Shown: one piece after another, positions 6,056 through 51,270 of the stretch
How the letters are laid out: each line of letters starts with the position of its first letter
How positions within the stretch are numbered: position 1 is the stretch's first letter
Virus record (IMG/VR): IMGVR_UViG_3300028586_000751
Location: 1 to 51,270 of that record
Length of the DNA: 51,270 nucleotides
Strand: one strand, 5' to 3'
Source of the DNA: a virus
Lineage: Duplodnaviria; Caudoviricetes
Position numbers and translations under genes: made by a program
Notes under the pieces: generated by a model
Told to the model about the DNA's origin: nothing
Databases searched by the model: none
Seen by the model: the letters and a program-made list of their open reading frames with translations, nothing else

Positions 6056-6140
6056 ATATTGATGAGGATTGATGCATCCTCGCCCCGCTATACTCGCGGA
6101 GCGAAACGGCACGCTTAGATGACCGTCCACTGCAAAAATT

Positions 6141-8440: not shown

Positions 8441-8655
8441 CTATCAATTTAGAAGTCAGACGCTCTATTGGCATTTTGGGCAATCGAATCAATCTCTTGG
8501 AGCGCAGGTCCTGCGCTATTCATTCACTGATTGAGTCGCTGCAAGTGCTTGATTCCACTGGCAGCCAGCGGATTGAATAGCGCAGCTTGCTTCGCGAAAT
8601 TGCGCTCCATACGCGCGAGCGGTAAGCTGAGCGTATGGCGATGTCGGAGTGAGCG

Positions 8656-9231
8656 ATGAGCAATTCAGAACGTAATTTTTTAGAGGCTTTTTTAGAGGGT
8701 GGCGAAGCGATTGCGGACCTTCTAATTAACAATGAGGCGCTTGAGGCGGTTCCAGTAGTTGGTACTGCATTCAAATTATCCAGGGGCCTGACCGACCTGC
8801 GTTCGAGGGCACTGAGCGCGAAGCTACTTAAGTTTTTGACCGAGCCGAGCTTGATAAGATCGATCGAAGCGGGACGCGCACGTGATCGCCTCAATAAAGA
8901 TGAGTATAGGGGTGTGGTCGGCGAGGCATTGTTCCTAACGCTGGATAAGGTAACCGATCTGAAAAAGCCAGCACTTCTCGGTCGCGCTTTCGCTGCATAC
9001 CTGGACGCAGTCATCGATACTGAAACGCTGCTGGCTTTGGCACATGCTGTCGACTTGGCGTTCGTTCGAGACCTGGAGTACTTCTTAACGCACCATGACC
9101 CAGAGGGCCAAGAAGGTAATCCATCTGCTTTCCGCCTCCTGCCTTCTGGCCTGGTCGACTACTCGAAGTTCCAAGACACACCTCTGGGCGCAGCGTTGAG
9201 GACGGTCGCCAGACACACGCAAACGCCGTAG
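8656..9231 (+). CDS. hypothetical protein
   Basis: 191-aa ORF with GGAG RBS. Confidence 0.6.
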   Translation: MSNSERNFLEAFLEGGEAIADLLINNEALEAVPVVGTAFKLSRGLTDLRSRALSAKLLKFLTEPSLIRSIEAGRARDRLNKDEYRGVVGEALFLTLDKVTDLKKPALLGRAFAAYLDAVIDTETLLALAHAVDLAFVRDLEYFLTHHDPEGQEGNPSAFRLLPSGLVDYSKFQDTPLGAALRTVARHTQTP

Positions 9232-9240
9232 TTCCCGAGA

Positions 9241-9273
9241 AAGCATGGTTAGGCTATGAATCTAACCACGCTT
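9241..9273 (+). terminator. hairpin after 8656-9231
   Basis: AAGCATGGTTAG-9-CTAACCACGCTT inverted repeat with a T-run shortly after. Confidence 0.35.
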
Positions 9274-9399
9274 CGGCATTTTTCCGTTTCCCGACAACGA
9301 CCTAGCAGCGGTCGCTTGTACTATGGATGAGCCGCAGGTGCCGCCGCAACCCATTGTTTCGATTCAGGTCGGCCCTGCTCAATAGTACAGATCAGTACG

Positions 9400-9651
9400 C
9401 TATAGCTTCGGCTGCTCCTGCACCACCGGCTCGGCGCCCAGGTCGCGGAGCAGCGAATCGCGCATGATGCCAGCGGTCGACGACTGCGGATTGATGCGCA
9501 GGTAGTCGTGCGTCCGGAGCGTCAAAGCACGCAGGCGAAATAACTCCCAGAGTAGTGCGCGGCCATCGTCGGAGCCGCGTAGGCGCTCTTGAATTTCTAG
9601 CAGCTCGGCGCGGGTAAGCGGCGCGCGATCGGTTCGCTTAATACTGTTCAT
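9400..9651 (-). CDS. small SOS-regulated hypothetical protein
   Basis: MNSIKRTD...LLWELFRLR; start codon lies inside a LexA box. Confidence 0.65.
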   Translation of the reverse strand: MNSIKRTDRAPLTRAELLEIQERLRGSDDGRALLWELFRLRALTLRTHDYLRINPQSSTAGIMRDSLLRDLGAEPVVQEQPKL

Positions 9652-9661
9652 ACATACAGTA
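9642..9661. promoter_or_regulatory. LexA (SOS) box
   Basis: TACTGTTCATACATACAGTA = TACTG-N10-CAGTA; overlaps TGcTATACT -10 and ATG 9651. Confidence 0.8.
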
Positions 9662-9773
9662 TAGCAGCGGCCAATCAATGGCCACCGACGCGCCGGCGCA
9701 ACAGCGGGATGCGCGACGCATAGTCTAACCTCCGACATATACCGTAGGTATCACGCTCTGCCATACTGATTGG

Positions 9774-9965
9774 ATGGACCAACGAACTGATCGCCTCACG
9801 GCAGTGCAAGTCGACCTGGCCGTGAACATTGCCGGAGTGTTTGGGATGGCCGCAGGAGTGCGATCGCTGCACGAGTGCGGCATACCACTATCGGTTATCC
9901 AGCGCGTGCTAATTCAGGGCGGACAGCGGCGCGGTTCTATTTCGGCCCCGCCTGTGTCCTCTTAG
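9774..9965 (+). CDS. small hypothetical protein
   Basis: 63-aa ORF. Confidence 0.5.
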   Translation: MDQRTDRLTAVQVDLAVNIAGVFGMAAGVRSLHECGIPLSVIQRVLIQGGQRRGSISAPPVSS

Positions 9966-10004
9966 CGAAGTAGGCAGCAAGACAGCGTGAAGATGTTGGC
10001 CGGA

Positions 10005-10496
10005 TCAGTCCTTGAACGTAATCTGGCCGTTCACTTTAATCGTACCCGCGCCGGTTGCCATGTCTTCGGCGCCAGTGAAGTTGCCTCCACCAGCAGCCTT
10101 CTTGTACCGGCCGGTGCCACCAGTAATTTGGAATGTAGCATTACTAAACACAAATTTCGCGCCCTCGCCGGTCGGAACAAACTGGCCGCTGTAGTTCAAG
10201 AAGATCTGATCGCTGTCTGTCGTGACTATCGTCATGCGACCCTCTGCGAAGTTGAACAGCGGGCCATTTTGCGTAATACAGTCAGTTCCGATGAAGGCGA
10301 TTCGACCGAGAAGAGCGCTATTTCCTTGCCCGACAATCGTGCCGCCAAAATTCGAAGGGCATCGCGCAGATGGGCCGACGAACTCCTGTAGCACGCCTTC
10401 AATGACCAGCGGCTTTGTAGAAGCTGGCGCCGCGGTCGCCGACACAGAAGCGCAAAGCATCAGCGACAGAGCAGTAGTGCGGACAAGGTTTTTCAT
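10005..10496 (-). CDS. secreted beta-rich hypothetical protein
   Basis: Signal peptide MKNLVRTTALSLMLCASVSATA; ITGGTGRY..A.G motif as in dirigent/allene-oxide-cyclase-like barrels. Confidence 0.65.
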   Translation of the reverse strand: MKNLVRTTALSLMLCASVSATAAPASTKPLVIEGVLQEFVGPSARCPSNFGGTIVGQGNSALLGRIAFIGTDCITQNGPLFNFAEGRMTIVTTDSDQIFLNYSGQFVPTGEGAKFVFSNATFQITGGTGRYKKAAGGGNFTGAEDMATGAGTIKVNGQITFKD

Positions 10497-10924
10497 AATA
10501 GTTGGCTTTCGTAGGGTGGGTAGTGCCCGCATACTAATATGGAAGAGTTAACACCCACGCACGAATGAAATCCCTGACGCTATCTGCCGGCTCGACGATC
10601 CTCTCGCCTACTTCGGCCAGGCCTGAACCGTCTTCGAGTGCCGAGCAGCACATTCCGCATACTGGCGCAGCAAATCGATAGCCCAGGCGCGCCAGGCGTC
10701 GAAGTCGTCAGTTGTCATCCGTGTCGTAACCGGTGAACCGCGCCGGTAGAACGAACGGAAAAACTCTGTTTGGGCTTTTATTCACTTGCAGCAGCGGTGT
10801 GAGCCTACCTACGCTGGTCGATACAAAGATTTGGCGCCGGCGACGCCGCCAAGCTCCATATCGCATGCTTGCCATCCGCCGATGACAACAATACTTTGAC
10901 CTCCGACGGTGTATGAACGACAAC

Positions 10925-11019
10925 TGTCGGTTATCTTGACACCCGTCAGTGATGTCGTGGTTTAGGTGATCGCAAATCATTGATTTAGCGAAACAATTTG
11001 TTTAGGCATTAAATTTGCT
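10925..11019 (+). promoter_or_regulatory. enhancer (TGT-N11-ACA) + IHF site + sigma54 promoter
   Basis: TGTcggttatcttgACA 10925-10941; AATCAAtgatTTG on minus strand 10973-10985; GG-N10-GC (AGGCATTAAATTTGCT) 11004-11019. Confidence 0.7.
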
Positions 11020-11058
11020 TAAGCTAACAGAACAATTCTAATTACTGAAAGAGCTTGC

Positions 11059-11643
11059 ATGAAAACCTTCCACGCTTTGATGATCGGCATCACCTTGACC
11101 GTTGGCTCTAGCGTATTGTCGAACAATGCCCATGCCGGCTATTTTGGCGCAAGCGCAACCCTCACGTTCGATAGCAAAGGCGCGCTAGGTCCAGTCACTT
11201 TTGCCAGCCCGGCAACGGTCGGGTCTGGAGTTGAATTCACTGGCGGAGCGAGAGATGTCTTCGGCGCCTCCTGGACATTTATGTTCGATGTGCTCGATAC
11301 CGGCGTCTTTATAAAAATGGCCGCCGAAGACCGCAGAAACATCTTTAGCGGTCTAGACGGTTTCATTTTCGATCTGAGCTTTTCCGATGCTATGGTCAAT
11401 GACCTTGTGCTCACCAACTACAGCCATACGGCTGGATTTCGTTCCGGACTCAGCAGTGTGACAGCGACCAGCCCGAACAGTATCCGTTTCGGCTTCAATG
11501 GCCTGTACGACACAGCAGAGTACACGTTTACCAATACTGCCGAAGTGCCGGAGCCGGCGTCGGTCGCGTTGCTGGGAATGGGGTTGGCCGGCCTGGTCGC
11601 ACTGCGCCGCACGCGCCGGCACAATGCAGTCAAACCGACCTGA
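11059..11643 (+). CDS. PEP-CTERM sorting domain protein
   Basis: Signal peptide ending AHA; C-terminal VPEPASVALLGMGLAGLVALRRTRR. Confidence 0.92.
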   Translation: MKTFHALMIGITLTVGSSVLSNNAHAGYFGASATLTFDSKGALGPVTFASPATVGSGVEFTGGARDVFGASWTFMFDVLDTGVFIKMAAEDRRNIFSGLDGFIFDLSFSDAMVNDLVLTNYSHTAGFRSGLSSVTATSPNSIRFGFNGLYDTAEYTFTNTAEVPEPASVALLGMGLAGLVALRRTRRHNAVKPT

Positions 11644-11708
11644 ATATTGCAGCAGGACCCATTCCGGCAGATGGACTGTTTGTCTACCCCATCTGGGCCT
11701 TAACAAGG

Positions 11709-12212
11709 CTAGCGTGCATTCACCGCCCTGCAGGCTTCAAAGCTCTCGATGACGCGGTCGTACTGCCGCACGATTCGCGCAATGTCTGCTCCGTCGGCGA
11801 GAATTTCAGCAGCAACCTCCGGCACAATTGCCGGTCCTGCTCCGTCAGCACCAGGTGCGGCGGCAGTGGGTCGATCGCCGGGCGCGGCGCTGGCTGGTAC
11901 TGGCCCTGTCGGGCAGCGCAGCCGGTCATCGCCAACGCGCACACGGCGCTGAGCAGCAGCGAGGTCTTGGGCATGTTCCTGTTCCTTTCTATGTGCGGCC
12001 GATTCGCGCGCCTGCAGCTGCGCGCGCAAGTCGGCCTCGGTGATGCGGGTGATCTCAGCGACGGCGTCGCGCGCGGTTTTTCCCTCGGCGACGGCAGCCG
12101 CATAGCCTGCGTTGTAGCGAGTGCTGCCGTAGTGCATCACGCCGAGCCAGCCGACCACCACCAGCCCGGCCAGCACGATCATGGCGACCAGGGTGCGTTC
12201 GATGGTCGTCAT
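11709..12212 (-). CDS. Rz-like inner-membrane spanin
   Basis: MTTIERTLV...N-terminal TM then coiled coil; ATGA overlap with endolysin. Confidence 0.8.
   Translation of the reverse strand: MTTIERTLVAMIVLAGLVVVGWLGVMHYGSTRYNAGYAAAVAEGKTARDAVAEITRITEADLRAQLQARESAAHRKEQEHAQDLAAAQRRVRVGDDRLRCPTGPVPASAAPGDRPTAAAPGADGAGPAIVPEVAAEILADGADIARIVRQYDRVIESFEACRAVNAR
11720..11974 (-). CDS. Rz1-like outer-membrane lipoprotein spanin embedded in Rz
   Basis: MPKTSLLLSAVCALAMTGC lipobox, Pro-rich, alternate frame wholly inside Rz. Confidence 0.75.
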   Translation of the reverse strand: MPKTSLLLSAVCALAMTGCAARQGQYQPAPRPAIDPLPPHLVLTEQDRQLCRRLLLKFSPTEQTLRESCGSTTASSRALKPAGR

Positions 12213-12874
12213 GGGATCGCCTTCATGGCCTGGCCGGTCAGCGCCCGGCGCTCGATGTAGCCGATGGCATCGCCTACTCGCTCGGTCTTGCGGCCGATGT
12301 TGATGCAGTCGGACACGCCGTCGACGTCGTCGAGGTCGGCGAAGCGGTTCAGGTTGTTGACGTGCCAGAACCAGCCGGCGCCCAGGGCGGCGCCCATGTC
12401 CGTCGACAGCCAGGCGCCGATGGTGTCGCGCGACAGGCCGAAATAGTCCGCCACGGCGTTGTGGTTCGTGGTGCCGGTGATCTGCATCCAGCCAGCGCCG
12501 CGCGTACGCCAACCATCGCCGCTCTCCGGGCCCCGGTTGCCCATGCGGTTCGCGTAGGCGATGTTGGCGATTGTCTGCTGGTCGGCCGCGTGCGCAGCCG
12601 TGCGGCCGAAGCGCTCGGCCTGCTCAGGCGTGAAGCGCGTCACCTTCTTCGTATTGAACCTGGACAAGATTGCAGCCGGCACGTAGTTCAGGTTCTCGCG
12701 CTTGCGCACAAATCCCCCGCTCTCGTGCGCCACCTGGGCAAGGAAGTGGGCCAGGCGCCGGCGGGTGTTGATCCCGAAGCGCTCGATGGCCGGCTGCAGC
12801 GCGTTGGCGACGACGGCCGCGTTCGCGCCGCACTGCGGCGCCACACGGCGGATCATGTCAGCAGTGACGATCAT
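12209..12874 (-). CDS. GH19 (chitinase-like) endolysin
   Basis: AHFLAQVAHESGG, ENLNY, YANRMGN, GDGWRTRGAGWMQITG. Confidence 0.9.
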   Translation of the reverse strand: MIVTADMIRRVAPQCGANAAVVANALQPAIERFGINTRRRLAHFLAQVAHESGGFVRKRENLNYVPAAILSRFNTKKVTRFTPEQAERFGRTAAHAADQQTIANIAYANRMGNRGPESGDGWRTRGAGWMQITGTTNHNAVADYFGLSRDTIGAWLSTDMGAALGAGWFWHVNNLNRFADLDDVDGVSDCINIGRKTERVGDAIGYIERRALTGQAMKAIP

Positions 12875-38756: not shown

Positions 38757-39800
38757 TCAAAGCTGCTCGCCACTTTCGCGCCGCATGAACCCAACATTTG
38801 CGCCGATTTGCTCTTGCGCACGCACGGCCAAGTCGAGGTTCTTCTCCAGGTAACCCATCGTCGTGACCGGGCTCTTGTGCCGCATGACGCGCTGGATCGT
38901 CTGCACCGGTACGCCCGCCTCGGACAGCAGCGTGGCGAACGTCCCGCGCAGGCGGTGGGGCGTGATGCCCTTGAGCGAGCAGGCCGTGTTTGCCTTTCTC
39001 ATCACCTGGCGCGCGAAACCGCTCTTGAATTCCTGTCCGTCCTGCTTGAGCACGATCAGGCCCTGGGCTTGGCGCTGCGGCGTCAGGTGCTCGACCAGCC
39101 AGGCCGGCATCGGCACCGGCTCCGCTTCCCTGCCCTTCGTGATACCCGGCGTGTACATCGCTCGCTGCCAGTCGACCCATTCCCAGCGCGCTGTCATGCA
39201 CTCGCTCTCGCGCAGGCCCAGGGCGAACATCAAACGCACCGCAGTGGCGATCGCCGGCGCGCGGCCGGCAGCGGCGTCGACGGCGTCGAACCAGGTCCTG
39301 GCCACGTCGAGCGGCAGGATCGCCCGGGGGCGCTTTTGCACCTTCAACATCGGCACACGCCATGGCGCCGCCACCAGGGTGCCGCGCTTGACGGCCCACA
39401 TGGTCAAGAGCTTCAGGATCCGCAGCCAGTGGTTCGAGCTGGCCGGTTTGTGGTCCTGAAGGTGCAGGTTGCGCGCCAGCTCGACATCGGCGGTGGTGAT
39501 GGCATCGATGCGGCGCTCGCCCAGGTCGTACATGTGCAGGCGCCGGAACTTATCCACACTGCGGATGTGCGCCGCGCTTGCCACCGGCCGGTTCACGACA
39601 ATCCACACTTCGATCAACTCATCGAGGGTCGGTACCGGCTGGCCGCCATTGGCGCGCACCACCGCGGCCTCGAACGCGCGCTGGGCCAGTTGCTCGGCGG
39701 AGCGTCGGTTGCGCAGCTTGGTGCTGCGCTGCACGCGCTGGCCGCCCACCTGGAAACGGTAGTGCCAGATGTCGCCCTGCTTGAAGACGTTCGCACTCAT
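38757..39800 (-). CDS. tyrosine recombinase/integrase
   Basis: GLRESE (R), HRLRGTFA (HxxR), MRHKS, TMGY (Y); ATGA-coupled to DnaB. Confidence 0.9.
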   Translation of the reverse strand: MSANVFKQGDIWHYRFQVGGQRVQRSTKLRNRRSAEQLAQRAFEAAVVRANGGQPVPTLDELIEVWIVVNRPVASAAHIRSVDKFRRLHMYDLGERRIDAITTADVELARNLHLQDHKPASSNHWLRILKLLTMWAVKRGTLVAAPWRVPMLKVQKRPRAILPLDVARTWFDAVDAAAGRAPAIATAVRLMFALGLRESECMTARWEWVDWQRAMYTPGITKGREAEPVPMPAWLVEHLTPQRQAQGLIVLKQDGQEFKSGFARQVMRKANTACSLKGITPHRLRGTFATLLSEAGVPVQTIQRVMRHKSPVTTMGYLEKNLDLAVRAQEQIGANVGFMRRESGEQL

Positions 39801-41161
39801 AAATGCGCTGCCAGGCCACGGTTCGAACGGCGTTCTTTCGATTCGCGCTTCGGCGGCACCCAGCCGCGTGCCAGGTTCTCGAAGCGGGTCTGCTCGCCGA
39901 TGTAGGCCAGCGCGGCCATGCCGGGCGCACCCTGCCGGCATAGCGCTACGTTCACCTCGCACACGCCAGGATCGTGGCTATCCGGGTTATAGACCTCGTC
40001 GCGATACAGGAAGATCACGGCGTCTGCATCCTGCTCGATGGCGCCGGAGTCGCGCAGGTCGGCCGGCATTGGGCGCTTGTTCGGCCGCTCTTCCAGCTTG
40101 CGGTTTAACTGCGACAGCAACACGACGCCGATACCGAGTTCCTTGGCCAGCGCCTTCAGGCCGCGCGTGATGCCCTCGATCTGCGTGTTTCGGTTGTCGC
40201 CATCGCCTTCCATCAGCTGCAGGTAGTCGACCACCAGTAGATCCAGGCCGTGCTTGCGCTTGACCGCCTTGGCCTTCATGCGCACGTCCAGCAGGCGCTG
40301 GCCGCCTTGGTCATCGACGAACAGCTTCATCGCCTCGATCTTCATCACCGCATGCGTCAGGCCCGCCCAGTCGGTTTCGGTCATAAGCGCCGGCTGCAAC
40401 AGGTGCGGTAGCGGGATCCGGCCCAGAGCCGCGATGTTCCGGTCGTGCAGCTGCGCCTTCGGCATTTCCATCGATAGCACCAGCACGCTCAGCTGCTGGT
40501 CGGCCACATTGCAGGCCACATTCAGCGCAAAGCCAGTCTTGCCCATCTTCGGGCGCGCTGCCAGCACGATCAGCTCACCTGGGCGGATGCCGCCGCTCAG
40601 GCGCGCATCGACGTCCGGGAAGCCGGTGCTGATCGCGCGGGCTGAGCCGTCCATCCGGCGCTCGATCTCCGCGACGTGGCCGGCCAGCTCGTCTGCCGCA
40701 CGCACCGGCTCGATCCTTGTGCGCGCCTGGGCCAGCTGCTCGAGCAACGACGAGGCCTGGTCGACCAATGCCGTCGATTCAGCCGGCGACGTGGCGGCCG
40801 ACTCGGCCACGTCGCGGCCGAACTTGATCAGCCCGCGCTTGATGGCCTTGTCTCGCACGATGGCGGCGTAGCGACCAATGTTCGCTGCCGACGGCGTGCT
40901 CTGCGCCATCTCGTTCAGGTACGGCATGCAGTTGCCCACCGTAGTGCGAAGTACGTCGCCCATCGACACGACGTCGCAGCTGCGGCCGGCCACCAGGTTG
41001 CGCATCAGCTCGCGGAAGATCACGGCGTGGTCCGACAGGTAGAAGTGCTCGGCGCGCAGGTCGCCGATGCGATCGACGGCGTCGTTGTCACGCAGCAGGC
41101 CGCCGATGACGCTCTGCTCGGCCTCGAGGTTGTGTGGTGGCGGTTTGATGTCATTGCTCAT
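39797..41161 (-). CDS. dnaB: replicative DNA helicase
   Basis: EAEQSVIG, ARPKMGKT, VDYLQL, LSQLNR, DLRDSGAIEQDAD. Confidence 0.95.
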   Translation of the reverse strand: MSNDIKPPPHNLEAEQSVIGGLLRDNDAVDRIGDLRAEHFYLSDHAVIFRELMRNLVAGRSCDVVSMGDVLRTTVGNCMPYLNEMAQSTPSAANIGRYAAIVRDKAIKRGLIKFGRDVAESAATSPAESTALVDQASSLLEQLAQARTRIEPVRAADELAGHVAEIERRMDGSARAISTGFPDVDARLSGGIRPGELIVLAARPKMGKTGFALNVACNVADQQLSVLVLSMEMPKAQLHDRNIAALGRIPLPHLLQPALMTETDWAGLTHAVMKIEAMKLFVDDQGGQRLLDVRMKAKAVKRKHGLDLLVVDYLQLMEGDGDNRNTQIEGITRGLKALAKELGIGVVLLSQLNRKLEERPNKRPMPADLRDSGAIEQDADAVIFLYRDEVYNPDSHDPGVCEVNVALCRQGAPGMAALAYIGEQTRFENLARGWVPPKRESKERRSNRGLAAHL

Positions 41162-43360: not shown

Positions 43361-43609
43361 TTACCGCGGTTGGGTATCGACGTGATGCTTTTTGACTAAT
43401 TCTGGCCAGTACCGCTCCCAGTCGTCTGGAAACATCTCCTTGCGCGTCACTAGGCCACCGGTTGCAGCTTCGATAGCGGCGCCGTGCACGAAAGGTATCG
43501 GTCTAGTGCCATCGGCCCAACGGCTGATATCAGGCGCATGCGCGCCAATAGCGCGGGCCAGTGATGCTTGGCGCCCACGCTCCTGAATGAGGTACTGGGA
43601 AAGGTTCAT
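43361..43609 (-). CDS. Cro/YdaS-family repressor
   Basis: QASLARAIG....ISRW, IEAATGG.VTR, WPEL. Confidence 0.85.
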   Translation of the reverse strand: MNLSQYLIQERGRQASLARAIGAHAPDISRWADGTRPIPFVHGAAIEAATGGLVTRKEMFPDDWERYWPELVKKHHVDTQPR

Positions 43610-43615
43610 GACGGC

Positions 43616-43696
43616 AGGTTAGCCTAAGGCTAATCAATCTGCAAGGGAAATGTTAGCTTTTGGCGAATTTACTATTTTAGCCATCGGCTAAATAAT
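43616..43696. promoter_or_regulatory. OR region: three operators, pR and pRM
   Basis: TTAGCCTAAGGCTAA 43619-33, TTAGCTTTTGGCGAA 43653-67, TTAGCCATCGGCTAA 43677-91; pR TTGCAG-17-TAACCT (minus); pRM TTTACT-17-AATAAT (plus). Confidence 0.8.
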
Positions 43697-43702: not shown

Positions 43703-44404
43703 ATGAACACTATTGAAACCATCCATCGAGAAAATCTGCAGGCTCTGGCGCGCGAGTATGGAGGTGTCGCTTCAGTGGCAGCAAAGATCGGCTGCAGCTC
43801 ATCTCAGTACAGTCAGTGGATGAACGGATCACAGAATTCGGGCACTGGCAAGCCGCGTGGCATGCGCGCCAGCTCGGCGCGACGCATAGAGAAAGCGACA
43901 GGCAAGCCCGTTGGCTGGATGGACAAAGCGCATCCCACAGCAGATGCGCCTCAGATTTTTGATCAGAACGTGAGACCGGCCTCCGTTGGCGCGCGGCCGA
44001 TACCGGTGATCTCATCTGTACAGGCCGGAGCATTGAGGGATATGGAAGCCCCATATTCGCCTGGTGCTGGGTATGCATACGAATACACCGACCAAGACCT
44101 TTCCGAGTGGGCTTTCGCGCTGGATATCGAGGGTCTTTCGATGATGCCGGAATTTCGACCTGGCGATCGGATCATAGTCGACCCCGAAATATCTCCGAAC
44201 CCAGGTGATTTTGTCGTCGCTCGCAACGGGACCGACCAGGCCACCTTCAAGAAGTATCGCCCGCGCGGAATTGATGCGAGCGGCAACATGGTCTTCGAAC
44301 TGGTGCCGCTGAACGACGACTACGCAACACTTCGCAGTGACACAGAACATTTAACTGTGATCGGCGTGATGACCGAGCATCGAAAGAAGTATCGAAGGAC
44401 TTGA
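43703..44404 (+). CDS. CI repressor with S24 autopeptidase
   Basis: HTH, VQAG cleavage site, GLSM (Ser), TFKK (Lys). Confidence 0.93.
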   Translation: MNTIETIHRENLQALAREYGGVASVAAKIGCSSSQYSQWMNGSQNSGTGKPRGMRASSARRIEKATGKPVGWMDKAHPTADAPQIFDQNVRPASVGARPIPVISSVQAGALRDMEAPYSPGAGYAYEYTDQDLSEWAFALDIEGLSMMPEFRPGDRIIVDPEISPNPGDFVVARNGTDQATFKKYRPRGIDASGNMVFELVPLNDDYATLRSDTEHLTVIGVMTEHRKKYRRT

Positions 44405-44423: not shown

Positions 44424-45326
44424 ATGCCGATCGAAATGGACCTGCTTATGATCGAAGAATCAGTCGATAACACTCCAATATTTTTTAGAACTGTTGAGGA
44501 GTTCTGTCGACGGCCGAAATATCAGCTTAGGCTTCAATGCACAAGTGATAGTTTGGATAGGATTATCGGGAAATACGAGCGACCAAAGGACAATCAGATT
44601 CAATGCGGACTCAACGGCTGCACGAAGGAGCACATGTTTGGGTATGTGATTCGCGCAAAGGATGGCACTGAAACGAATTGCGGCCAAGTGTGCGGTAGGC
44701 GCGAGTTCGGCGTGAAATTTGAGGAAGTCGAGGCCCTATATAAAAAGGCCGAAGATGCACAGCTACGTAAGCGTCTACTGACGGAACTGGCAGAGAACCG
44801 AACAACCCTCCTGCTACAGGGTGAGGACGTCCACGGTCGCGTCAAAGAGTGCAGCGAACGCATTTCGAAGGTGGTCACAGAGGTCGAAAAGGACTTTGCT
44901 CTCAGCAGCGCCTTTCGTTCTTGCATCCGCAGCGGGGGAAAGATCCGGGTCGAAAATAAAGTTGATGAAGCGCTGCGACGCGCAAAGGCAGACCTTATAA
45001 CGATTGGGGAAATTCAAGGAAGTACGGCTCTTATTAACTATGAAGAACTTCCCAAGACGATTTACTATAAATTTCTTTTGCCTTTACGAGAACTTGACAT
45101 CGCGCACCTAGACAATCTTGAAAATAATGAACTGGAGAAGAAAACCCGCGAAGTGAAAGATCTATCTTCGATTCTGGCTAACGCACGAGATTTTCTTATC
45201 GATGCAGAAAAATTCACAGAGCCGGAAAACTTGCGAGAATTTTCAAAGCTGAAGGAACTAATGCCTACGAAATCCAAGACAGGTCGAGTAGATAGGATTC
45301 TATCGCGGCTGCCGGGAGTTTCTTAG
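44424..45326 (+). CDS. low-GC hypothetical protein with putative Zn-binding N-terminus
   Basis: CGLNGC..H and NCGQVCG; directly after cI. Confidence 0.7.
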   Translation: MPIEMDLLMIEESVDNTPIFFRTVEEFCRRPKYQLRLQCTSDSLDRIIGKYERPKDNQIQCGLNGCTKEHMFGYVIRAKDGTETNCGQVCGRREFGVKFEEVEALYKKAEDAQLRKRLLTELAENRTTLLLQGEDVHGRVKECSERISKVVTEVEKDFALSSAFRSCIRSGGKIRVENKVDEALRRAKADLITIGEIQGSTALINYEELPKTIYYKFLLPLRELDIAHLDNLENNELEKKTREVKDLSSILANARDFLIDAEKFTEPENLREFSKLKELMPTKSKTGRVDRILSRLPGVS

Positions 45327-45599
45327 AGCGTTCACGCCATCCTGATCGAGGCCCAGTGCAGACACGATCTGTCCACCCGGAACGAGGCGCTCAGCCTCTA
45401 CATTTGCAGCTAAAACGTCGCGCGCCCATGCTATCGCCTTGACGGCGTGTGATCGGCAGTGTTCAGCTGATCCGAACGTAAATCCATCGACGTTCACCAT
45501 AATGCGCCCAGAAAATTCGTCTTTGGAAATCGTAACAGTGCCGATCTCCGTCATATCACTGTAGTCGGCTTGGCCGGCTTCCAGCACTGTCTTCTGCAT
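45300..45599 (-). CDS. hypothetical protein
   Basis: MQKTVLEA... with GGAGG upstream. Confidence 0.45.
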   Translation of the reverse strand: MQKTVLEAGQADYSDMTEIGTVTISKDEFSGRIMVNVDGFTFGSAEHCRSHAVKAIAWARDVLAANVEAERLVPGGQIVSALGLDQDGVNALRNSRQPR

Positions 45600-45612
45600 C
45601 CCCACCCTCCAC

Positions 45613-45635
45613 GCCCCGCCCGCCGGGGCTTTTTT
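45613..45635 (+). terminator. immunity-region terminator
   Basis: GCCCCG/CGGGGC stem + TTTTTT. Confidence 0.55.
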
Positions 45636-45677
45636 ACGCGCGGACAACCCGGCGCTGGTGAATGATATATCAGACGA

Positions 45678-45730
45678 TTAGCTTAAGGCTAAAAATAAAT
45701 CTTGTGTCGTTGTTAGCTTTAGGCTAAAGT
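45678..45730 (+). promoter_or_regulatory. OL operators and pL
   Basis: TTAGCTTAAGGCTAA 45678-92 and TTAGCTTTAGGCTAA 45713-27; TTGTGT-17-TAAAGT at 45702-45730. Confidence 0.8.
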
Positions 45731-45783
45731 GGCTTCATCGCAAACTAGCTCAGAACCCGCTGAGCTGCCGACTGGAGACCAGC

Positions 45784-45933
45784 ATGAAGCCGTTTCTCAT
45801 CACCGCCCGTACCTCGACCTGCTGCCTGACCTTCAGCGCCCTGGCGCGCAGCAGCGCCGAAGCGGCCGAGTTGACCGCCGCCCTTCTGGGTGACCAGCCT
45901 TGCGGGATCACCGTCGTTGCTGGGGTCCGCTGA
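45784..45933 (+). CDS. small early protein
   Basis: GGAG RBS, MKPFLITART...; 49 aa. Confidence 0.55.
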   Translation: MKPFLITARTSTCCLTFSALARSSAEAAELTAALLGDQPCGITVVAGVR

Positions 45934-46139
45934 TGGCCAGCGCCAAAGACATGCGCGGTGCTGTCAGCCGCGCAGTAGACAAAGCGATCCACGCCTATCC
46001 AGAAGATAAAGCGATGCAGGCCCGGATGTTCGCAGCCTATCTCTGCGGCACGCTGGCCGCTATGGAAGAGCGTGCTCTCGAGGATGATCTGAACCGCCTG
46101 CTCGGTTTGTCGCCCACTTGTTCGACCGACGGTGCCTGA
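45933..46139 (+). CDS. small early protein
   Basis: TGATG-coupled MASAKD... Confidence 0.5.
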   Translation: MASAKDMRGAVSRAVDKAIHAYPEDKAMQARMFAAYLCGTLAAMEERALEDDLNRLLGLSPTCSTDGA

Positions 46140-46329
46140 AATGGTGCACGCCGAACCTGATCGCGCCGCGCTCGAGGTGGCCCACCGCATGCTTCGCACG
46201 CCCGCCTCGCTCGACGACATGCTCGCGCACCCAACGTTCAGGCTGGTCCTGAAGATCCTGGCGTGCCGGCACATGGCGCGGCGCGACCAGGTCGATGTGA
46301 AGAAGCTGCAGGCCAACGACCACGATTAA
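46132..46329 (+). CDS. small early protein
   Basis: D.KKLQAND C-terminus; overlaps previous ORF. Confidence 0.55.
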   Translation: MPEMVHAEPDRAALEVAHRMLRTPASLDDMLAHPTFRLVLKILACRHMARRDQVDVKKLQANDHD

Positions 46330-46364
46330 CCCGCCCTTCTGGGCACAACCACAAGGAAACGCCA

Positions 46365-46958
46365 ATGTTCACCAATCTGCATGAGCTCGCGAAGAAGGCG
46401 ACGCTGATGATCACCATCGCGCCCGAGGGCGCCGACCAGCTGCGCGTCAACATCACTGCGGCACCATTCGACACGAAGGCGAAAGCCAGCGTGCCGCAGC
46501 CGCTGTCGCTCGTCGCCACGCCGGCCGAGTTCGATGCCGACTTCATCGCCGCCCTGGCCACCTGGCAGGCGCCAAAACGCACGCTGCTGCAGCAGGCCCA
46601 GGATGCAGCCGGTGCGTTGGGCCTGCCGGCCGGCACCAGCGAGCCGCCGAAGGCGCTGCCAGCGCCTGAAAAGGCAAAGCCGGGCCGAAAGGCGCGCGGC
46701 GCGAAGGCTCCAGCCGACGCCCCATCTGGTGACGATGATGATGCGGGCGGTGCTGATGACACGGCGGCCGGCGAAGCCAGCGCTGGCGGGGACCAGACCG
46801 GCGCACCAGCTGCTGCGGGCGACACCAGCCAGGGCGATGCCCCGTCGCCGGCGGCGAGCGGCGAGCAGCAAGACGCACCCGTCGACCAGTCCGCGCAGTC
46901 CACCTCGGGCGCCGCCGGCGACGCCGTGGTCGACACGCACACCCTCGACCTCTTCTAA
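46365..46958 (+). CDS. PRTRC system protein E
   Basis: MF..L......L.I...LRV...PLSL.ATP.EFD..F then a low-complexity tail; AAGGA RBS. Confidence 0.85.
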   Translation: MFTNLHELAKKATLMITIAPEGADQLRVNITAAPFDTKAKASVPQPLSLVATPAEFDADFIAALATWQAPKRTLLQQAQDAAGALGLPAGTSEPPKALPAPEKAKPGRKARGAKAPADAPSGDDDDAGGADDTAAGEASAGGDQTGAPAAAGDTSQGDAPSPAASGEQQDAPVDQSAQSTSGAAGDAVVDTHTLDLF

Positions 46959-46968
46959 CGGAGCCCCC

Positions 46969-47175
46969 ATGGAAATCCAGAACCTTATTCGCGAGTTCAC
47001 CTACAACGGCGTCGCCTTGGGCGACCCGAGCTCTGCCTTCTCGCTCGAGCAAGTGCGCGACTTCTACGCCAACGTGTACCCCGAGATCACCAACGCGGAC
47101 ATCGAAGGCCCGAAGCAGGTCGGCAACAAGGCGATCTACACGTTCCGCCGCGCCGTCGGCACGAAAGGCGCCTGA
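46969..47175 (+). CDS. PRTRC system protein C (ubiquitin-like)
   Basis: REF.YNG..L.DP....S.EQVRDFY...YPEI.NA.IEGP...F.RAVGTKGA. Confidence 0.9.
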   Translation: MEIQNLIREFTYNGVALGDPSSAFSLEQVRDFYANVYPEITNADIEGPKQVGNKAIYTFRRAVGTKGA

Positions 47176-47177
47176 TC

Positions 47178-47375
47178 ATGAAACGTGAAGTCGCCCTGGA
47201 GCGCCTGCGCGCCGGCGGCCGCCTGTCGGCCACTGAGCAGCCGCTCAATGTCTTGACCGAAACGCAGGCATCGATGCCGCTGGCACGCACGGTCAAGCAC
47301 CTTATTGAGAACCACGTGCGCAGCAACGGCCCACGCTGCCTAGCACCGTCGCCCAACCACGCGGTGCTGCCATGA
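47178..47375 (+). CDS. small PRTRC-associated protein
   Basis: Between C and F; ATGA-coupled to F. Confidence 0.6.
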   Translation: MKREVALERLRAGGRLSATEQPLNVLTETQASMPLARTVKHLIENHVRSNGPRCLAPSPNHAVLP

Positions 47376-48430
47376 TCGCAATCCAGCCTAGCGCCGCACT
47401 GGCCCTGCCGCTGTTCGGGCCTGAGGTGCCGAATTGCTACACGATCCCGGGTGTCGACCAGATGACCATCCCGCTGACGATCGCGCTGCTCGATGCAAAC
47501 GTCATTACCGACGCCATGCTTCGCACGCCGCGCAACGCTTTGCTGGTCGACGTGTTCGGCGAGACCGAAAAGCAGCTGTCGCAGCGCGCGCTTTCGCACT
47601 GGTGGACCCGTGTGATCCGCGCCAATTCATGCAAGTTCTTCCGATGGAGTCTGCATGTGCAACAACTGGACGACGGCGGGCACGGCCACAGCAAGGAAAC
47701 CACTGCTTGGTTCTGCCTGAATCGGATGGATGGTGAAATGCCTCGCTTCGCACTAGCCCCAGGCGTCGAGAAGCTGGAGCGCCTGCTTGAGGGCTTCGGC
47801 CAGACCGTTCTGTCCGTGCTGCGCGACGCCACCAACCTGCTCCCTGACTCGTTCACGCCCTGGTTCGCGCGTGGATGGGTCGAGTCCTCCTATTGGCACG
47901 ATTCGCGCGACGACATTGAGCTGCTCGAGATGCGGCGCGAAATGAACGGATACGACACTGTGCAGGAGCTCCTCGAGGCCGAGCACGTCATCACCCGCGA
48001 CGTCTTCTACCGAGAAATGCCCGAGTGGGTATGCGAACCAAACCGTACACGGACCAGGGATGAGGTCGGCGCGGCCGCCTCGACTGATTTGGCTCGCCGG
48101 GTCGTCCAGGTATGCGATGAATTGCACGCCCTGGTTAGTAAGCAGGGGTTCGTACTCAGCCCAATTGACAAGGGCGTATACCGCTGCGGACACGACACGA
48201 TCGACGGTTCGATGGTGTTGCTGTGGAAACAGTATGACGTGGTCGGCCAGGCGATCGACGACTACCTCGAGGATCTCGGCAACGCCGGCGATTACTGTGA
48301 CTTCATCGACGCGAACCCTGTCCCCATGACCGCCGACGGTATTCGCGACTTCCAGATCCGGACCGAACAAGCGCTCCAGGTCGCGGTGCTGACCGAAAAA
48401 CTGCTCCTGCTGCTGGGGGAAAAATTTTGA
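47372..48430 (+). CDS. PRTRC system protein F
   Basis: Size and position between C and B; VEKLE....GFGQTVL..L motif. Confidence 0.75.
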   Translation: MIAIQPSAALALPLFGPEVPNCYTIPGVDQMTIPLTIALLDANVITDAMLRTPRNALLVDVFGETEKQLSQRALSHWWTRVIRANSCKFFRWSLHVQQLDDGGHGHSKETTAWFCLNRMDGEMPRFALAPGVEKLERLLEGFGQTVLSVLRDATNLLPDSFTPWFARGWVESSYWHDSRDDIELLEMRREMNGYDTVQELLEAEHVITRDVFYREMPEWVCEPNRTRTRDEVGAAASTDLARRVVQVCDELHALVSKQGFVLSPIDKGVYRCGHDTIDGSMVLLWKQYDVVGQAIDDYLEDLGNAGDYCDFIDANPVPMTADGIRDFQIRTEQALQVAVLTEKLLLLLGEKF

Positions 48431-49170
48431 GTCTCATACCTGTAGATATCATCGGCTCCGGCGAAGCTGTGCTGAGGCTGTCCAGTGCCGTGCTGGTGTA
48501 CGAATCGAATCAGGGCCACGTGTACGCGACATCACATCAGGTGGCACTCGACCCGAAATATACCGGCCGACCAATCATCGGTGCAGGCGTGCCCTTGTCG
48601 AAGGGCACCCTTGCGAAGTTCGCGGGTGCCGTTGCTGCGGCCACCGCCTTCAGTGGCTTCCTGCCAGAAAACCTGCTGTTCAGCTCGTCCAACGTGATCG
48701 CATGGTGGACGCCGGCACAGGTGCGCACCACCTGGTTTAAGAAAGCCGGCAGCGGCACGGTCGAAGGACGTGGGCCAGCTGCGCACCCTGCCCTGGTATT
48801 CGTGGCCACGCCGAACGACTGGTTCGTGTTTTCGCTGCGCAAAAGCGCCCGTCCCGCGCCCACCGACTATCTGTGCCATGCCCCTCACTTCAATGTATGG
48901 CAGGGCGGCCGGATCTGCACCGGCAATGTGGACTTGCCGGCAACGTTCGGCGCCGAGGTGATCGATCGCTACGAGACAGCATTCTTCCGTAGCCACTTCA
49001 CCCACCCGAACCACGCCGACGCTGTGAAGTACAAGGGCGGCATGCAGAAGCTGTGGCAGGACCAGTTGGCCAACCCTGATCCCGAGAAGATGCGCCGCGC
49101 GCTCGTCGACTCGAAAGAAACGCTGCAGGCCGCGATCGCGCGCATTGCAGGACGCAATACCACCTACTGA
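48427..49170 (+). CDS. PRTRC system protein B (E2-like)
   Basis: WWTP, HPALVF, APHFNV...G.ICTG, FF.S.FTHPN. Confidence 0.88.
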   Translation: MSLIPVDIIGSGEAVLRLSSAVLVYESNQGHVYATSHQVALDPKYTGRPIIGAGVPLSKGTLAKFAGAVAAATAFSGFLPENLLFSSSNVIAWWTPAQVRTTWFKKAGSGTVEGRGPAAHPALVFVATPNDWFVFSLRKSARPAPTDYLCHAPHFNVWQGGRICTGNVDLPATFGAEVIDRYETAFFRSHFTHPNHADAVKYKGGMQKLWQDQLANPDPEKMRRALVDSKETLQAAIARIAGRNTTY

Positions 49171-49185
49171 CCCGAAGAGGAAGAC

Positions 49186-49959
49186 ATGGACAAGCAAGAA
49201 TTCAAAGACAAGTTCGACGAGCTGCTCAGCATCACCCGCGGATCGTTTGAGACCTTCCTGGCCACTGCCGAGACCGTGCTGCGCGAGCAGCGCCCGCTGC
49301 CGCTGGCCGTCGATGAGGCGAATGCGCCGGCCGACCTGCTGCAGCTCGACCAGGCCCTTCTGGCCGCCGCGCCGATCGCGGCCGTGCCGCGTCACGCTCC
49401 GTTCTACCCCCTGCAAGAGAGCGGTCACCGCTTCCTGCTGGCTGCCGATGGCTTGCATCTTGAGGTCCGCCGGCCATGGCTGCACTTTATCCACAGGCTG
49501 GCCGAGAGCCCGAACGTGGCAATCCCGTATGGCGCGCTGGAGAAGAAGTGCACACTCGACTTCGGGTCGATCGGAAGCGCACTCCCGCAGATGAAGGAAT
49601 TTGCCGCAAAGGCCAAGGCCGATGCGCCGATCGAGGCGGCCGCCAGCCTGCTCTGGAATCACGCCGCGCGCACCTGGCGTATCGCCTACCCGGAGGTTAT
49701 CGGCGAGGCCAGCGCGAGCCGCATCCAGTATCACCAGGTCGAGGTCGGCGAGAACGAGAGCCTGGCGATTGACCTGCACAGCCACGGCCATCTAGTCGCG
49801 TTCTTCAGCGACACCGATGACGCGGACGACCGCGGCGCGGTCAAGATCTCGGCTGTGTTCGGCAATCTGAATACCGACAAGCCGACCGTAGCGTTCCGGA
49901 TGTGCGTGCTGGGCCTGTATATTCCGATCCCGGTACCGGCCGAGAAAGTGTACGGGTAA
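49186..49959 (+). CDS. PRTRC system protein A (JAB/MPN peptidase)
   Basis: E...DLHSHG...AFFS.TDD.DD JAMM motif. Confidence 0.9.
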   Translation: MDKQEFKDKFDELLSITRGSFETFLATAETVLREQRPLPLAVDEANAPADLLQLDQALLAAAPIAAVPRHAPFYPLQESGHRFLLAADGLHLEVRRPWLHFIHRLAESPNVAIPYGALEKKCTLDFGSIGSALPQMKEFAAKAKADAPIEAAASLLWNHAARTWRIAYPEVIGEASASRIQYHQVEVGENESLAIDLHSHGHLVAFFSDTDDADDRGAVKISAVFGNLNTDKPTVAFRMCVLGLYIPIPVPAEKVYG

Positions 49960-49963
49960 CCGC

Positions 49964-50743
49964 ATGCAGCACATAACGCCACCCTACATGCTGAGCCGCG
50001 CGCCGCGCATTGCCCTGATCGGCTGCGGCGGCAACGGTTCGCAGATGCTCACCGGCCTGGCCAGGCTGAACCATGCGATCACGGCCCTGGGCCATCCGGG
50101 CCTCGAGGTGCGCGCCTATGACCCGGACTCGGTCAGCGAGGCGAACATGGGCCGCCAGCTCTTTGGCGCCTTCGATGTCGGCTCGAGCAAGGCCCACGTG
50201 CTGGTCAACCGCGTGAACGCATTCTTCGGCCTGAACTGGCAAGCAGTCTATGGCCGATACGACGGGCGCGACCACCTGTGCGACATGGCGATCGCCTGCG
50301 TCGACAGCGCGCGGGCCCGGGCCGAGATCGAGAGCCACCTCGAGGCGCGCAACGTGCAATACCTGATGGACCTTGGGAATCGCGCGGCCGACGGCCAGGT
50401 TCTATTCGGCGAGCTGAGCACGAATCGCGAGCTGCCGGCTGGGAGCGTTGCCCTGCCAAGCCCGTACCAGGTTCTGCCGGAGCTGGTCGACCTGAACGCA
50501 CCCGAGGACGACACCCCGAGTTGCGGCCTGGCCGAGGCGCTCGAGCGCCAGGAGCTGTTCGTGAACCAGTCGATTGTGACGCCGGCGCTCAGCATCCTGT
50601 GGGAATTTTTCCGGCACGGTCGGCTGACCTGGCACGGCGCGTTCGTAAACCTGCGCACCGGCACCATGCGGCCGCTGAACGTGCGCGAGCCGGCGCCGCC
50701 GGCACCCGAAGAAGTGAAGATCAAAGTGCAGGTGAGAGCATGA
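49964..50743 (+). CDS. PRTRC ThiF-family (E1-like) protein
   Basis: IGCGGNGS, D.D.VS.AN.GRQ, CVDS..AR, DLGN, PSC..AEAL..Q.LFVN. Confidence 0.92.
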   Translation: MQHITPPYMLSRAPRIALIGCGGNGSQMLTGLARLNHAITALGHPGLEVRAYDPDSVSEANMGRQLFGAFDVGSSKAHVLVNRVNAFFGLNWQAVYGRYDGRDHLCDMAIACVDSARARAEIESHLEARNVQYLMDLGNRAADGQVLFGELSTNRELPAGSVALPSPYQVLPELVDLNAPEDDTPSCGLAEALERQELFVNQSIVTPALSILWEFFRHGRLTWHGAFVNLRTGTMRPLNVREPAPPAPEEVKIKVQVRA

Positions 50744-51270
50744 GCGAGAACAGAAACAAGCGGTGGGACGACAACCGCGCACGTGGGGAGCTCAATTGGA
50801 CCGAAGCCGCCAAGGCAGACCTGGTCGAGGCCCTGCGGGTTCCGGGTGTCCGGACGTGGCGCCAGCGGATCGGCGTCGGCAAGGACTGGCCTCTGCACGC
50901 GCCGAACGACGTCGAGCGGGCGATGGTGGCGGAGATTGCCGAGCTGCGGCTCGCGGCAGCAAAGGTTGCCGCCCTTACCGCAAAGGCCGAAACGCCAGCG
51001 CCAGTGTGGGGTCGCGTGCAGACCGTGGGCGACATGGTGCGCAACCTGCTGACGCTCGACCAGGGCGACCCGATCCACTCGGCGTTCTTTCTCGACTTCG
51101 ACGGAAAGCGACGCTGCCGCACCCGGCCCATTACGATCAGCCGCGAGCGGGTAATCGACGGGAAGTGGGTTGATTCGACTCGAAAGGACGTGCCATACGC
51201 GACCGTTGTGTGGGCCAAGCCCGACGAGCGCGCCGACCAGCTCGACCGCAGTCCGGGAGAGGAACCATGA
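50740..51270 (+). CDS. hypothetical protein
   Basis: ATGA-coupled to ThiF; MSENRNKRW... Confidence 0.55.
   Translation: MSENRNKRWDDNRARGELNWTEAAKADLVEALRVPGVRTWRQRIGVGKDWPLHAPNDVERAMVAEIAELRLAAAKVAALTAKAETPAPVWGRVQTVGDMVRNLLTLDQGDPIHSAFFLDFDGKRRCRTRPITISRERVIDGKWVDSTRKDVPYATVVWAKPDERADQLDRSPGEEP

Follow-up and report, generated by a model that had tools for sequence, protein, structure and literature searches.

A phage-adapted PRTRC cassette for ubiquitin-like conjugation in the putative early-left operon of a lambda-like prophage

Why would a bacteriophage carry a full set of genes for ubiquitin-like protein conjugation, and at what point in its life cycle would such genes act? The question is raised by a provirus record of IMG/VR, IMGVR_UViG_3300028586_000751, whose entire stored sequence of 51270 bp was analyzed here and is called the window. 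Near its right end, downstream of a repressor region, lies a cassette of the PRTRC system, with genes for a ubiquitin-like protein (Ubl), a ThiF-family E1, an E2-like protein and a JAB peptidase. We propose, at a probability of roughly 0.6, that this is a phage-adapted PRTRC cassette (operon type 6d), a complete Ubl conjugation set in the early-left operon of a lambda-like phage, with an early or establishment role.

All six PRTRC families (E, C, F, B, A and ThiF) scored above the curated NCBIfam cutoffs, in bits, and their genes form one contiguous cluster (Table 1). This bears out the initial annotation, which had read the run as E, C, a small open reading frame (ORF), F, B, A and ThiF. The motifs it had named in B (N...C), A (HSH) and ThiF (GxGGxG and PSC) are likewise all present, with catalytic residues intact. 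In protein B, HFNVWQGGRIC holds N156 and the catalytic C164 (codon 48916-48918), and the motif SHFTHPN is present too; N156, C164 and H193 are each kept in at least 95% of 65 aligned sequences. Protein A carries HSH-x7-S-x2-D (H198, H200, S208 and D211) plus E150, and each of these residues, like R96 and W98 of the N-domain, is kept in at least 95% of 42 sequences. ThiF has GCGGNG (G20-G25, matching GxGGxG) and PSC (C187), and conservation again reaches at least 95% for each of G20, G22, G23, G25, D114 and C187 (63 sequences). By gene content, the cassette is thus a complete ubiquitin-like conjugation set of the PRTRC, or type 6d, kind. The small ORF, called sD here, belongs to no family in NCBIfam, Pfam or PHROGs and had no usable Atlas match. 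None of the seven cassette proteins (E, C, sD, F, B, A and ThiF) matched any family in PHROGs v4, and sequence searches of the PDB returned nothing for B and A at E values up to 1 or for ThiF up to 0.01.

The initial annotation had also placed this cassette under the control of the phage repressor, on the grounds that the same TTAGC-N5-GCTAA palindromes occur at cI/cro and at the head of the cassette operon. A search for TTAGCNNNNNGCTAA allowing at most one mismatch found five matches in the 51270 bp, three in the first of these places and two in the second (Table 1). All five lie inside the two control regions, and the count compares with a mean of 0.72 in shuffled sequence, where 0 of 100 shuffles reached 5. 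The operators therefore stand, but the promoter that they were said to overlap is only putative, since a consensus promoter scan found nothing at 45660-45780 (nor anything inside the cassette); the same scan did find a promoter-like site on the plus strand at 43668-43696, in the OR-like region. Ahead of the cassette-side operators, the hairpin at 45613-45629 would end the repressor transcript before it reached the early-left promoter.

From sA through the gene that follows ThiF, intergenic gaps run from -4 to +35 nt. The claim that no terminator interrupts this run holds for strong ones; between the operators and the ThiF stop, the plus strand shows a single terminator-like site, a weak stem of 5 pairs within B (48812-48826). 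E also proved not to be the first gene after the operators, because three small leader ORFs (sA, sB and sC) precede it. One or both of sA and sC occur in 22 of 24 related viral loci, and sC is a weak match to phrog_6236. Given the tight coupling of the genes and the lack of a convincing terminator or promoter-like site among them, sA to ThiF and onward is likely to be a single transcript.

Table 1. Coordinates of the cassette, its control regions and adjoining genes in the window
Feature	Position	Strand	Basis or remark
PRTRC protein E	46365-46958	+	TIGR03741, 56.6 bits vs cutoff 37.95
PRTRC protein C (Ubl)	46969-47175	+	TIGR03738, 103 bits vs cutoff 45.95; Pfam Prok_Ub
sD, 65 aa, ends CLAPSPNHAVLP	47178-47375	+	ORF call
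PRTRC protein F	47372-48430	+	TIGR03742, 87.4 bits vs cutoff 58.4; Pfam alpha-hel2 (PF14456)
PRTRC protein B (E2-like)	48427-49170	+	TIGR03737, 201.3 bits vs cutoff 131.45; Pfam Prok-E2_D
PRTRC protein A (JAB/JAMM metallopeptidase)	49186-49959	+	TIGR03735, 206.6 bits vs cutoff 101.8; Pfam DUF2016 N-domain and Prok-JAB
ThiF-family E1	49964-50743	+	TIGR03736, 307.6 bits vs cutoff 144.75; Pfam ThiF
Next operon gene, truncated by the record end	50740-51270	+	Start overlaps ThiF stop by 4 nt; kept in close relatives
Three small leader ORFs	sA 45784-45933, sB 45933-46139, sC 46141-46329	+	Between operators and E
OL-like region, two perfect TTAGC-N5-GCTAA palindromes	45678-45727		Sites 45678-45692 and 45713-45727; 57 nt before sA
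Intrinsic-terminator-like hairpin, 6 G-C pairs then T6	45613-45629	+	Upstream of the second operators
99-aa ORF between repressor operon and second operator region	45300-45599	-	ORF call
300-aa gene behind the repressor (lambda rex position)	44424-45326	+	phrog_7003, E 5.8e-30; no Pfam or PADLOC family
CI-type repressor, S24 self-cleaving peptidase domain	43703-44404	+	Pfam Peptidase_S24, E 1.4e-16
OR-like region, three TTAGC-N5-GCTAA palindromes	43619-43691		Sites 43619, 43653 (1 mismatch) and 43677
Cro-like gene (YdaS family helix-turn-helix), heads the rightward early operon	43361-43609	-	Pfam YdaS_toxin, E 6.3e-12; divergent from repressor

Relatives of the window differ in immunity type, and these differences supply a test of repressor control. 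For nine sequences, the window and eight relatives, 150-bp bins were compared with the 200 bp upstream of sA. In six of the nine (the window and loci L002, L004 as a tie, L008, L009 and L010), the best match was the bin that immediately precedes the S24 repressor gene, and Pfam confirmed the S24 repressors in those operator-sharing loci. When 300 bp upstream were used, L003 and L006 were also found to share words beside cro/cI, and L005 shared one weak word. The shared words vary by locus, as in TCAAGCCAGCTTGA, TAACCTGTGGTTGTA and ATGCGTTTTCGCAT; because they differ between relatives yet match within each, both control places appear to change together. A search for exact palindromes had found shared sites in two of the eight relatives and was superseded by these mismatch-tolerant searches. 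Between them, the shared operators of the window and the covarying words of its relatives make repressor control of the cassette operon well supported in silico.

This predicted early, repressor-controlled timing argues for an offensive or establishment role and against defense of the lysogen, and we infer that the cassette would be off in the lysogen and on at induction. In the opposite case, the lysogen would express the cassette to exclude superinfecting phages, tagging incoming phages as Bil does. Prophages often carry defense genes, and there is a kinship in kind with the conjugation systems Bil, Bub and CBASS (PMC11601603, PMC10557695; here and below, statements about cited papers and records refer to the parts of them that were accessible). 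The sequence likeness lies in ThiF, whose residues 12-91 match PADLOC E1-E2 models weakly, at 17-28 bits (E about 1e-7), and which scored 26 bits against the 6A-MBL cap2_3 model, where the cutoff is 320. The other six of the seven cassette proteins (E, C, sD, F, B and A) matched no PADLOC model, and neither PADLOC nor NCBIfam gave a family-level match to the known anti-phage Ubl systems CBASS Cap2/Cap3, Bil and 6A-MBL. Two repressor operators at the head of the operon, with a terminator before them, also speak against expression in the lysogen, and the place beside the repressor is held by the 300-aa gene rather than by the cassette. Moreover, plasmids carry the same cassette in leading-region-like neighborhoods. 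We consider a lysogen defense improbable.

On its minus strand, the window encodes a DnaB helicase, a replication protein, terminase, portal, protease, capsid and tape measure proteins (Pfam). IMG/VR yielded 11 related viral contigs with protein B and 24 with a B alignment, and these contigs share one gene order: replication genes, immunity region, sA/sC, E, C, sD, F, B, A, ThiF. The same order was found in seven genome prophages, from Massilia, Duganella, a Burkholderiales metagenome-assembled genome and Paraburkholderia tropica. Within 2 kb after the cassette, L003 has an integrase with a lambda-type arm-binding domain and then a tRNA-Gly gene; an integrase also follows the cassette in L011, and tRNA genes lie near the end of L002 and L010. 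The cassette is present, too, in three isolated phages, Ralstonia phages Dina and YO105_4 and Burkholderia phage BgVeeders33. Dina reads repressor, small genes, PRTRC, gp01 and then int across the record ends, and BgVeeders33 has the same layout, with the cassette diverging from the replication genes. Judged by this order, common to related viral contigs, prophages and the isolated phage Dina, the cassette belongs to the phage and is no separate insert of an integrative and conjugative element (ICE) or plasmid. A survey of related prophages, which the initial annotation had suggested, thus found the cassette recurring between the immunity region and int or tRNA genes. The best explanation of the window is a lambda-like temperate siphovirus of Oxalobacteraceae-type hosts, which are soil bacteria.

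How does this phage cassette relate to the one known from plasmids? Homologues of protein B were found in 243 of 72,556 plasmid records and in 4 of 50,697 phage records, the latter representing three phages, and a ParB-family gene stood directly before E in five of the six plasmid contexts viewed; PRTRC is thus mainly plasmid borne and next to ParB, as had been stated. Other plasmid neighbors were genes for a Lar family protein, an orphan N6 methylase and ssb, with dnaN once among the six contexts. Among 57 genome loci, 21 had ParB upstream, 7 were of the phage type without ParB, and the rest were mostly of an Acidobacteria type. By contrast with the ParB-bearing sets, tblastn searches with three ParB queries over flanks of 7-10 kb detected ParB beside the cassette in none of the 24 related viral loci and in none of the 7 related prophages. 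In the window itself, a scan with the ParB model TIGR03734 gave no match, nor did one with the protein D model TIGR03739; the protein D blank is weak because its control search matched nothing in any genome, and ORF scans for it were also blank. Within these limits, the absence of both from the window is as first described. In other sets, ParB lies upstream of the cassette, and the window ends 527 nt past ThiF.

Two side observations concern the plasmid neighbors. We considered dnaN as a regular neighbor of the cassette and rejected it, as it was present in one of six plasmid contexts and in none of the 57 genome loci (tblastn). The one instance is on a Xanthomonas hortorum plasmid (L016, 3459-4583 and 11474-12094), where dnaN lies directly upstream of the PRTRC ParB gene and ssb downstream; the single-stranded DNA-binding protein (SSB) encoded there has seven extra residues, LVLDSMF, past the usual DDDIPF end.

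The two types also differ in the ends of their proteins. We examined 81 loci for the ends of Ubl and E and could place E and B in 54 of them. At all 21 ParB-type loci the Ubl stops exactly at G[TS]KG and E ends ..L[WF](x), whereas at all 28 phage-type loci E ends in h-x-h-F, and the Ubl is extended past KG in 26 of these. In a quick maximum-likelihood tree of B plus ThiF (68 rows), the 21 phage-type rows all fell on one side of a branch with a Shimodaira-Hasegawa-like approximate likelihood ratio (SH-aLRT) support of 99. On this grouping, the phage copies form one lineage, which has moved between siphovirus and myovirus backbones.

The company of ParB raises the possibility that the cassette is a partition or maintenance module, as proposed for the Burkholderia gladioli prophage AB2, where the cassette has ParB beside it and is called a 'ParB/ThiF-partitioning cassette' (PMC13366799). 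The family name ties PRTRC to ParB, and ParB directly precedes the cassette in 21 of the 57 genome loci. In the phage lineage, ParB is missing from every viral and prophage locus searched and from the window, and the relatives integrate by means of int next to a tRNA gene; even for AB2, the accessible text reports that the authors failed to recover a plasmid form (PMC13366799). We regard partition as very unlikely for the window.

Two of the plasmid neighbors, the Lar family protein and the orphan N6 methylase, are of anti-restriction type. An anti-defense module would be expressed early and would have no action on replication; its cassette would tag and so inactivate host immune proteins, or its JAB peptidase would strip the tags placed by host Ubl defenses such as Bil and CBASS Cap2. 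The early operon with its repressor operators fits this, and some host Ubl systems are known to tag parts of phages (PMC11601603, PMC10557695). Yet no component resembles a known anti-defense family in Pfam, PHROGs or PADLOC, a full set of E1, E2 and Ubl exceeds what a deconjugase needs, and nothing ties the cassette to any particular defense system. Anti-defense is possible, though we would not favor it.

The ends of the Ubl suggest how the conjugation set would be made ready for use. In the window, the Ubl ends VGTKG-A, with one Ala after Lys-Gly. Of 23 readable viral loci, two have nothing after KG, two have 1 aa there and 19 have 62-100 aa; 12 of these 19 long extensions (12 of the 23 loci) are sD fused in frame; the Ubls of Dina and BgVeeders33 are likewise extended. 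The conserved G[TS]KG end, reached directly in ParB-type sets and variably extended in phage sets, marks the probable mature C terminus and implies processing. We infer that the mature Ubl would end at Gly67 (codon 47167-47169), and the series of Ubl forms predicts the JAB peptidase A as the obvious candidate for the maturase. JAB maturation of Ubl has been proposed for other prokaryotic JAB/Ubl pairs (PMC1779556).

Alternatively, ThiF and a ThiS-like protein might serve sulfur-carrier or small-molecule biosynthesis, as in the thiamin and molybdopterin pathways, with no tagging at all. ThiF does match ThiF/MoeB-type adenylyltransferases weakly, but its scores for metabolic families fall far below the cutoffs, the cassettes always include a JAB peptidase and an E2-like protein whose Cys is conserved, and NCBIfam and Pfam identified no sulfurtransferase or other biosynthetic gene in the operon. 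This explanation strikes us as scarcely credible.

If the cassette conjugates Ubl to proteins, what would its targets be? The initial annotation supposed that it acts on host or replication proteins; we keep this as a hypothesis, and the sole lead is the C-terminal TLDLF of protein E. In a structure model, the N-domain of E (residues 1-83), a small alpha-beta3-alpha domain, is the sole folded part. It is followed by a basic GRKARG patch (46662-46712; RGRGRPPK in Dina and BgVeeders33) and then by a long, acidic, Ala- and Pro-rich disordered linker of variable length, which leads to the C terminus THTLDLF (46935-46955). Among close homologues, 76 of 78 tails end in Phe and 66 of 78 in [TA][LI][DEN]LF. 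A profile of the E N-domain gathered 1673 representatives at E values up to 0.001, and of the best 150 of these, 48 have an h-x-h-F tail and 36 a ..L[WF](x) tail; 33 have a hydrophobic tail of another kind, 25 fit none of these classes and 8 are too short to judge. The best fold match of the head was T7 Gp1.2 (Z 6.5, root-mean-square deviation [rmsd] 2.7, 69 aligned), with double-stranded RNA-binding domains at Z 4-5; we draw no function from these matches because the alpha-beta3-alpha arrangement is common. Since only residues 1-83 fold in the model and the tail peptide is conserved, E would appear to be a tether with a C-terminal docking peptide.

Some E proteins hold the tail motif twice, with an internal ..T[RH]TLDMF and a terminal ..PL[DN]D[VC]F (L010 7932-8537; P0038 and P0067). 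The C terminus of sD (47337-47372) is also a conserved short, hydrophobic, Pro-containing peptide, which reads ..LAPSxNHxVLP in the phage lineage, ..DLPVLP in BgVeeders33 and ..DLPLIF on a Burkholderia plasmid (L015 7740-7958 and L014 26901-27086), and it may be a second docking peptide. Protein F is modeled with confidence (predicted local distance difference test [pLDDT] 82.7) as mostly helical, and its model matched one uncharacterized phage protein in BFVD (E 6.4e-4); an adaptor or E3-like function is our guess.

TLDLF shares four of five positions with QLDLF, a strengthened clamp-binding motif (PMC3664792), a resemblance only, and by a speculative extension E may dock on a replisome hub. 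A bolder joint reading holds that PRTRC tags proteins on DNA-loaded clamps. On plasmids, the E tail ..NLW(D/E/G) or ..SLF would dock on ParB from the same cassette, a protein that slides along DNA as a clamp; the phage lineage would have lost ParB and traded this docking for beta-clamp docking by TLDLF, which is close to the consensus beta-clamp motif, so that the phage could bring E2~Ubl early to host forks or to its own replisome. The Ubl-sD fusion would then be an inert pro-form, keeping the tag inactive until the JAB peptidase is made. The class of E tail follows the type of cassette, which a universal clamp partner would not predict, and dnaN adjoins the cassette in only one of six plasmid contexts and none of 57 genome loci. 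The joint clamp reading as a whole is doubtful.

Taking the preferred reading, a phage-adapted conjugation cassette with an early role, we can set out how it might work. In the lysogen, the S24 repressor bound to the two TTAGC-N5-GCTAA sites at 45678-45727 would hold the operon off. On infection or induction, one transcript would run through sA, sB, sC, E, C, sD, F, B, A, ThiF and onward. Comparative anatomy suggests that the Ubl C would be made with at least one residue past Lys-Gly and trimmed by the JAB peptidase A to ...GTKG. By homology, ThiF would adenylate the Ubl Gly and take up the Ubl on Cys187, from which it would pass to Cys164 of B and then to target lysines. F and E would select or hold the target, with E contributing its folded head, basic patch, disordered acidic linker and docking peptide. 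The cassette would serve incoming or replicating phage DNA in an early or establishment role, not in lysogen defense, and the phage slot would be of the same kind as the plasmid slot beside the ParB, ssb, Lar and orphan methylase genes.

Several points weigh against this reading. The argument from the slot rests on relatives because the window stops 527 nt after ThiF, and since those relatives form one lineage, their shared layout would be inherited and not independent. In Dina, the two candidate control regions share no 14-mers. No RNA run was listed as containing 45600-50800. A promoter read by hand at the cassette-side operators, TTGTGT-N17-TAAAGT (45701-45730), is weak, fitting 7 of 12 consensus positions, and was unsupported by the scan. 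Ahead of these operators, after the repressor operon, also sits the 99-aa minus-strand ORF, which belongs to no NCBIfam, Pfam, PHROGs or PADLOC family and had no tblastn match in relatives. Protein F has no relative of solved fold, the best matches of its model being E 0.68 in a Foldseek search of the PDB and Z 4.0 (rmsd 3.5, 88 aligned) in a wide VIA-align search. Finally, among the literature matches listed, we found no demonstration of conjugation by any PRTRC system.

Other features of the window adjoin these main subjects. The 300-aa gene in the lambda rex position has a G+C content of about 52%, against about 62% for the window, and phrog_7003 is its sole match. The truncated gene after ThiF belongs to no family in NCBIfam, Pfam or PHROGs and matched nothing nameable in the Atlas. 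The DNA continues beyond 51270, as a contig of the probable source run extends 551 nt further with even coverage; contigs from that run branch, with loose ends, at window positions 46329, 46595, 47391-47400 and 49296-49309, a pattern that hints at variants of related phages in this sample, differing near sC/E, in the E linker and at the start of F. A tyrosine recombinase gene (Phage_integrase; phrog_1; 38757-39962, minus strand) overlaps the end of dnaB in midgenome and is kept there in most relatives, unlike the relatives' terminal integrase, which sits beyond the cassette.

At the other end of the window, two adjacent large serine recombinase genes (2979-6055, plus strand) lie near a gene for a 280-aa DUF2971 protein (7598-8440, plus strand), which matches the candidate defense family PDC-S31 (E 1.4e-39, PADLOC). 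A PEP-CTERM-motif protein (11059-11643, plus strand) is encoded just outside the tail genes and may mark the left prophage border, and the whole left part, up to about position 11700, may belong to a separate island or to the host rather than to the phage. No attachment-site (att) repeat of at least 12 nt was found between 1-12500 and 50600-51270.

PRTRC, or type 6d, is the one large bacterial Ubl operon family for which we found no experimental study among the literature matches listed, and no title among them carries the term PRTRC. CBASS Cap2/Cap3, Bil (6C) and Bub (6E) have been characterized, and the accessible text of these reports states that other operon families are uncharacterized (PMC10557695, PMC11601603). 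The phage version, unlike the plasmid one, supplies what would be the time of action, early and under a repressor in silico. The natural series of Ubl forms (the mature end, one added residue, the sD fusion and fusions to other domains) pins the probable processing site to Lys-Gly. Because the phages are small, inducible and in part already isolated, they make a long-unexplained family testable, and a deletion should give a readable phenotype. If it is true that the E tail docks on a replisome hub, a virus would here be putting ubiquitin-like tags to use at the replication fork of bacteria.

Phage copies of PRTRC are already on record, and the impression left by the initial annotation, that the phage placement is unrecorded, is too strong. 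RefSeq annotates PRTRC proteins in Ralstonia phage Dina, and a 2026 paper describes the cassette of prophage AB2, reads it as a partition cassette that has 'not been studied' and calls PRTRC unrecorded in phages apart from NCBI accessions (PMC13366799). In a Phocaeicola prophage, PRTRC protein B is a variation hotspot (2026 preprint, 10.64898/2026.10.01.756045). The paper on Dina contains no mention of ThiF (PMC7940629), and in their accessible text none of the records of Dina, YO105_4, BgVeeders33 and AB2 discusses regulation, Ubl processing or the E tail. Dina (NC_055026), YO105_4 and BgVeeders33 belong to the same phage lineage as the window, although their B proteins are only 36-46% identical to it. 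The cassette of Dina lies between repressor and int, as in relatives of the window, and BgVeeders33 has the same gene order; operator sharing is clear in the window and was not found in Dina. AB2 is reported with ParB, whereas the lineage of the window is without it.

How, then, does the window compare with the systems described before? Relative to the PRTRC system of proteobacterial plasmids and ICEs (TIGR03734-TIGR03742), its six proteins and their order (E, C, F, B, A, ThiF) are unchanged, and in the plasmid sets viewed, too, C and F are separated by a small ORF or by an extension of the Ubl. It differs in being without ParB, in having no protein D match and in being headed by a phage operator region instead of following ParB. 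Its Ubl appears to be a precursor, whereas that of the ParB-type sets stops at KG in 21 of 21, its E tail is h-x-h-F (TLDLF) and not the plasmid ..L[WF](D/E/G), and its B plus ThiF fall on a separate branch. The window thus holds a phage-adapted version of a gene set known from plasmids since 2006. PRTRC is operon type 6d of Iyer, Burroughs and Aravind 2006 (PMC1779556), and the window shares with that type an E1, an alpha-helical protein, an E2-like Cys with a downstream conserved His (here H193) and a JAB N-terminal domain with conserved Arg and Trp (here R96 and W98). The type 6d Ubl ends in Gly, whereas in the window one Ala follows the Gly; the accessible description of type 6d includes no phage context and no protein E or E tail (PMC1779556).

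Bil, Bub and type II CBASS have the same kinds of parts (E1, E2, Ubl and peptidase) and conjugate through a C-terminal Gly (PMC11601603, PMC10557695, PMC10097602). They are host defenses, whereas the cassette of the window is phage borne and, in silico, under phage repressor control. Sequence matches to them are limited to the nucleotide-binding part of ThiF.

The left operon of phage lambda offers a parallel in layout. Lambda has cI-rex, a terminator, OL/pL, the early-left genes and xis-int, and the window has a repressor, a passenger gene, a terminator, a pair of operators of the OR type and a long putative early-left operon, with the int/att end present in relatives. Lambda pL has three operators where the window has two, and no N-like antiterminator was identified in the window. 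The cargo differs as well: where lambda keeps recombination and host-takeover genes, the window carries a ubiquitin-like conjugation set.

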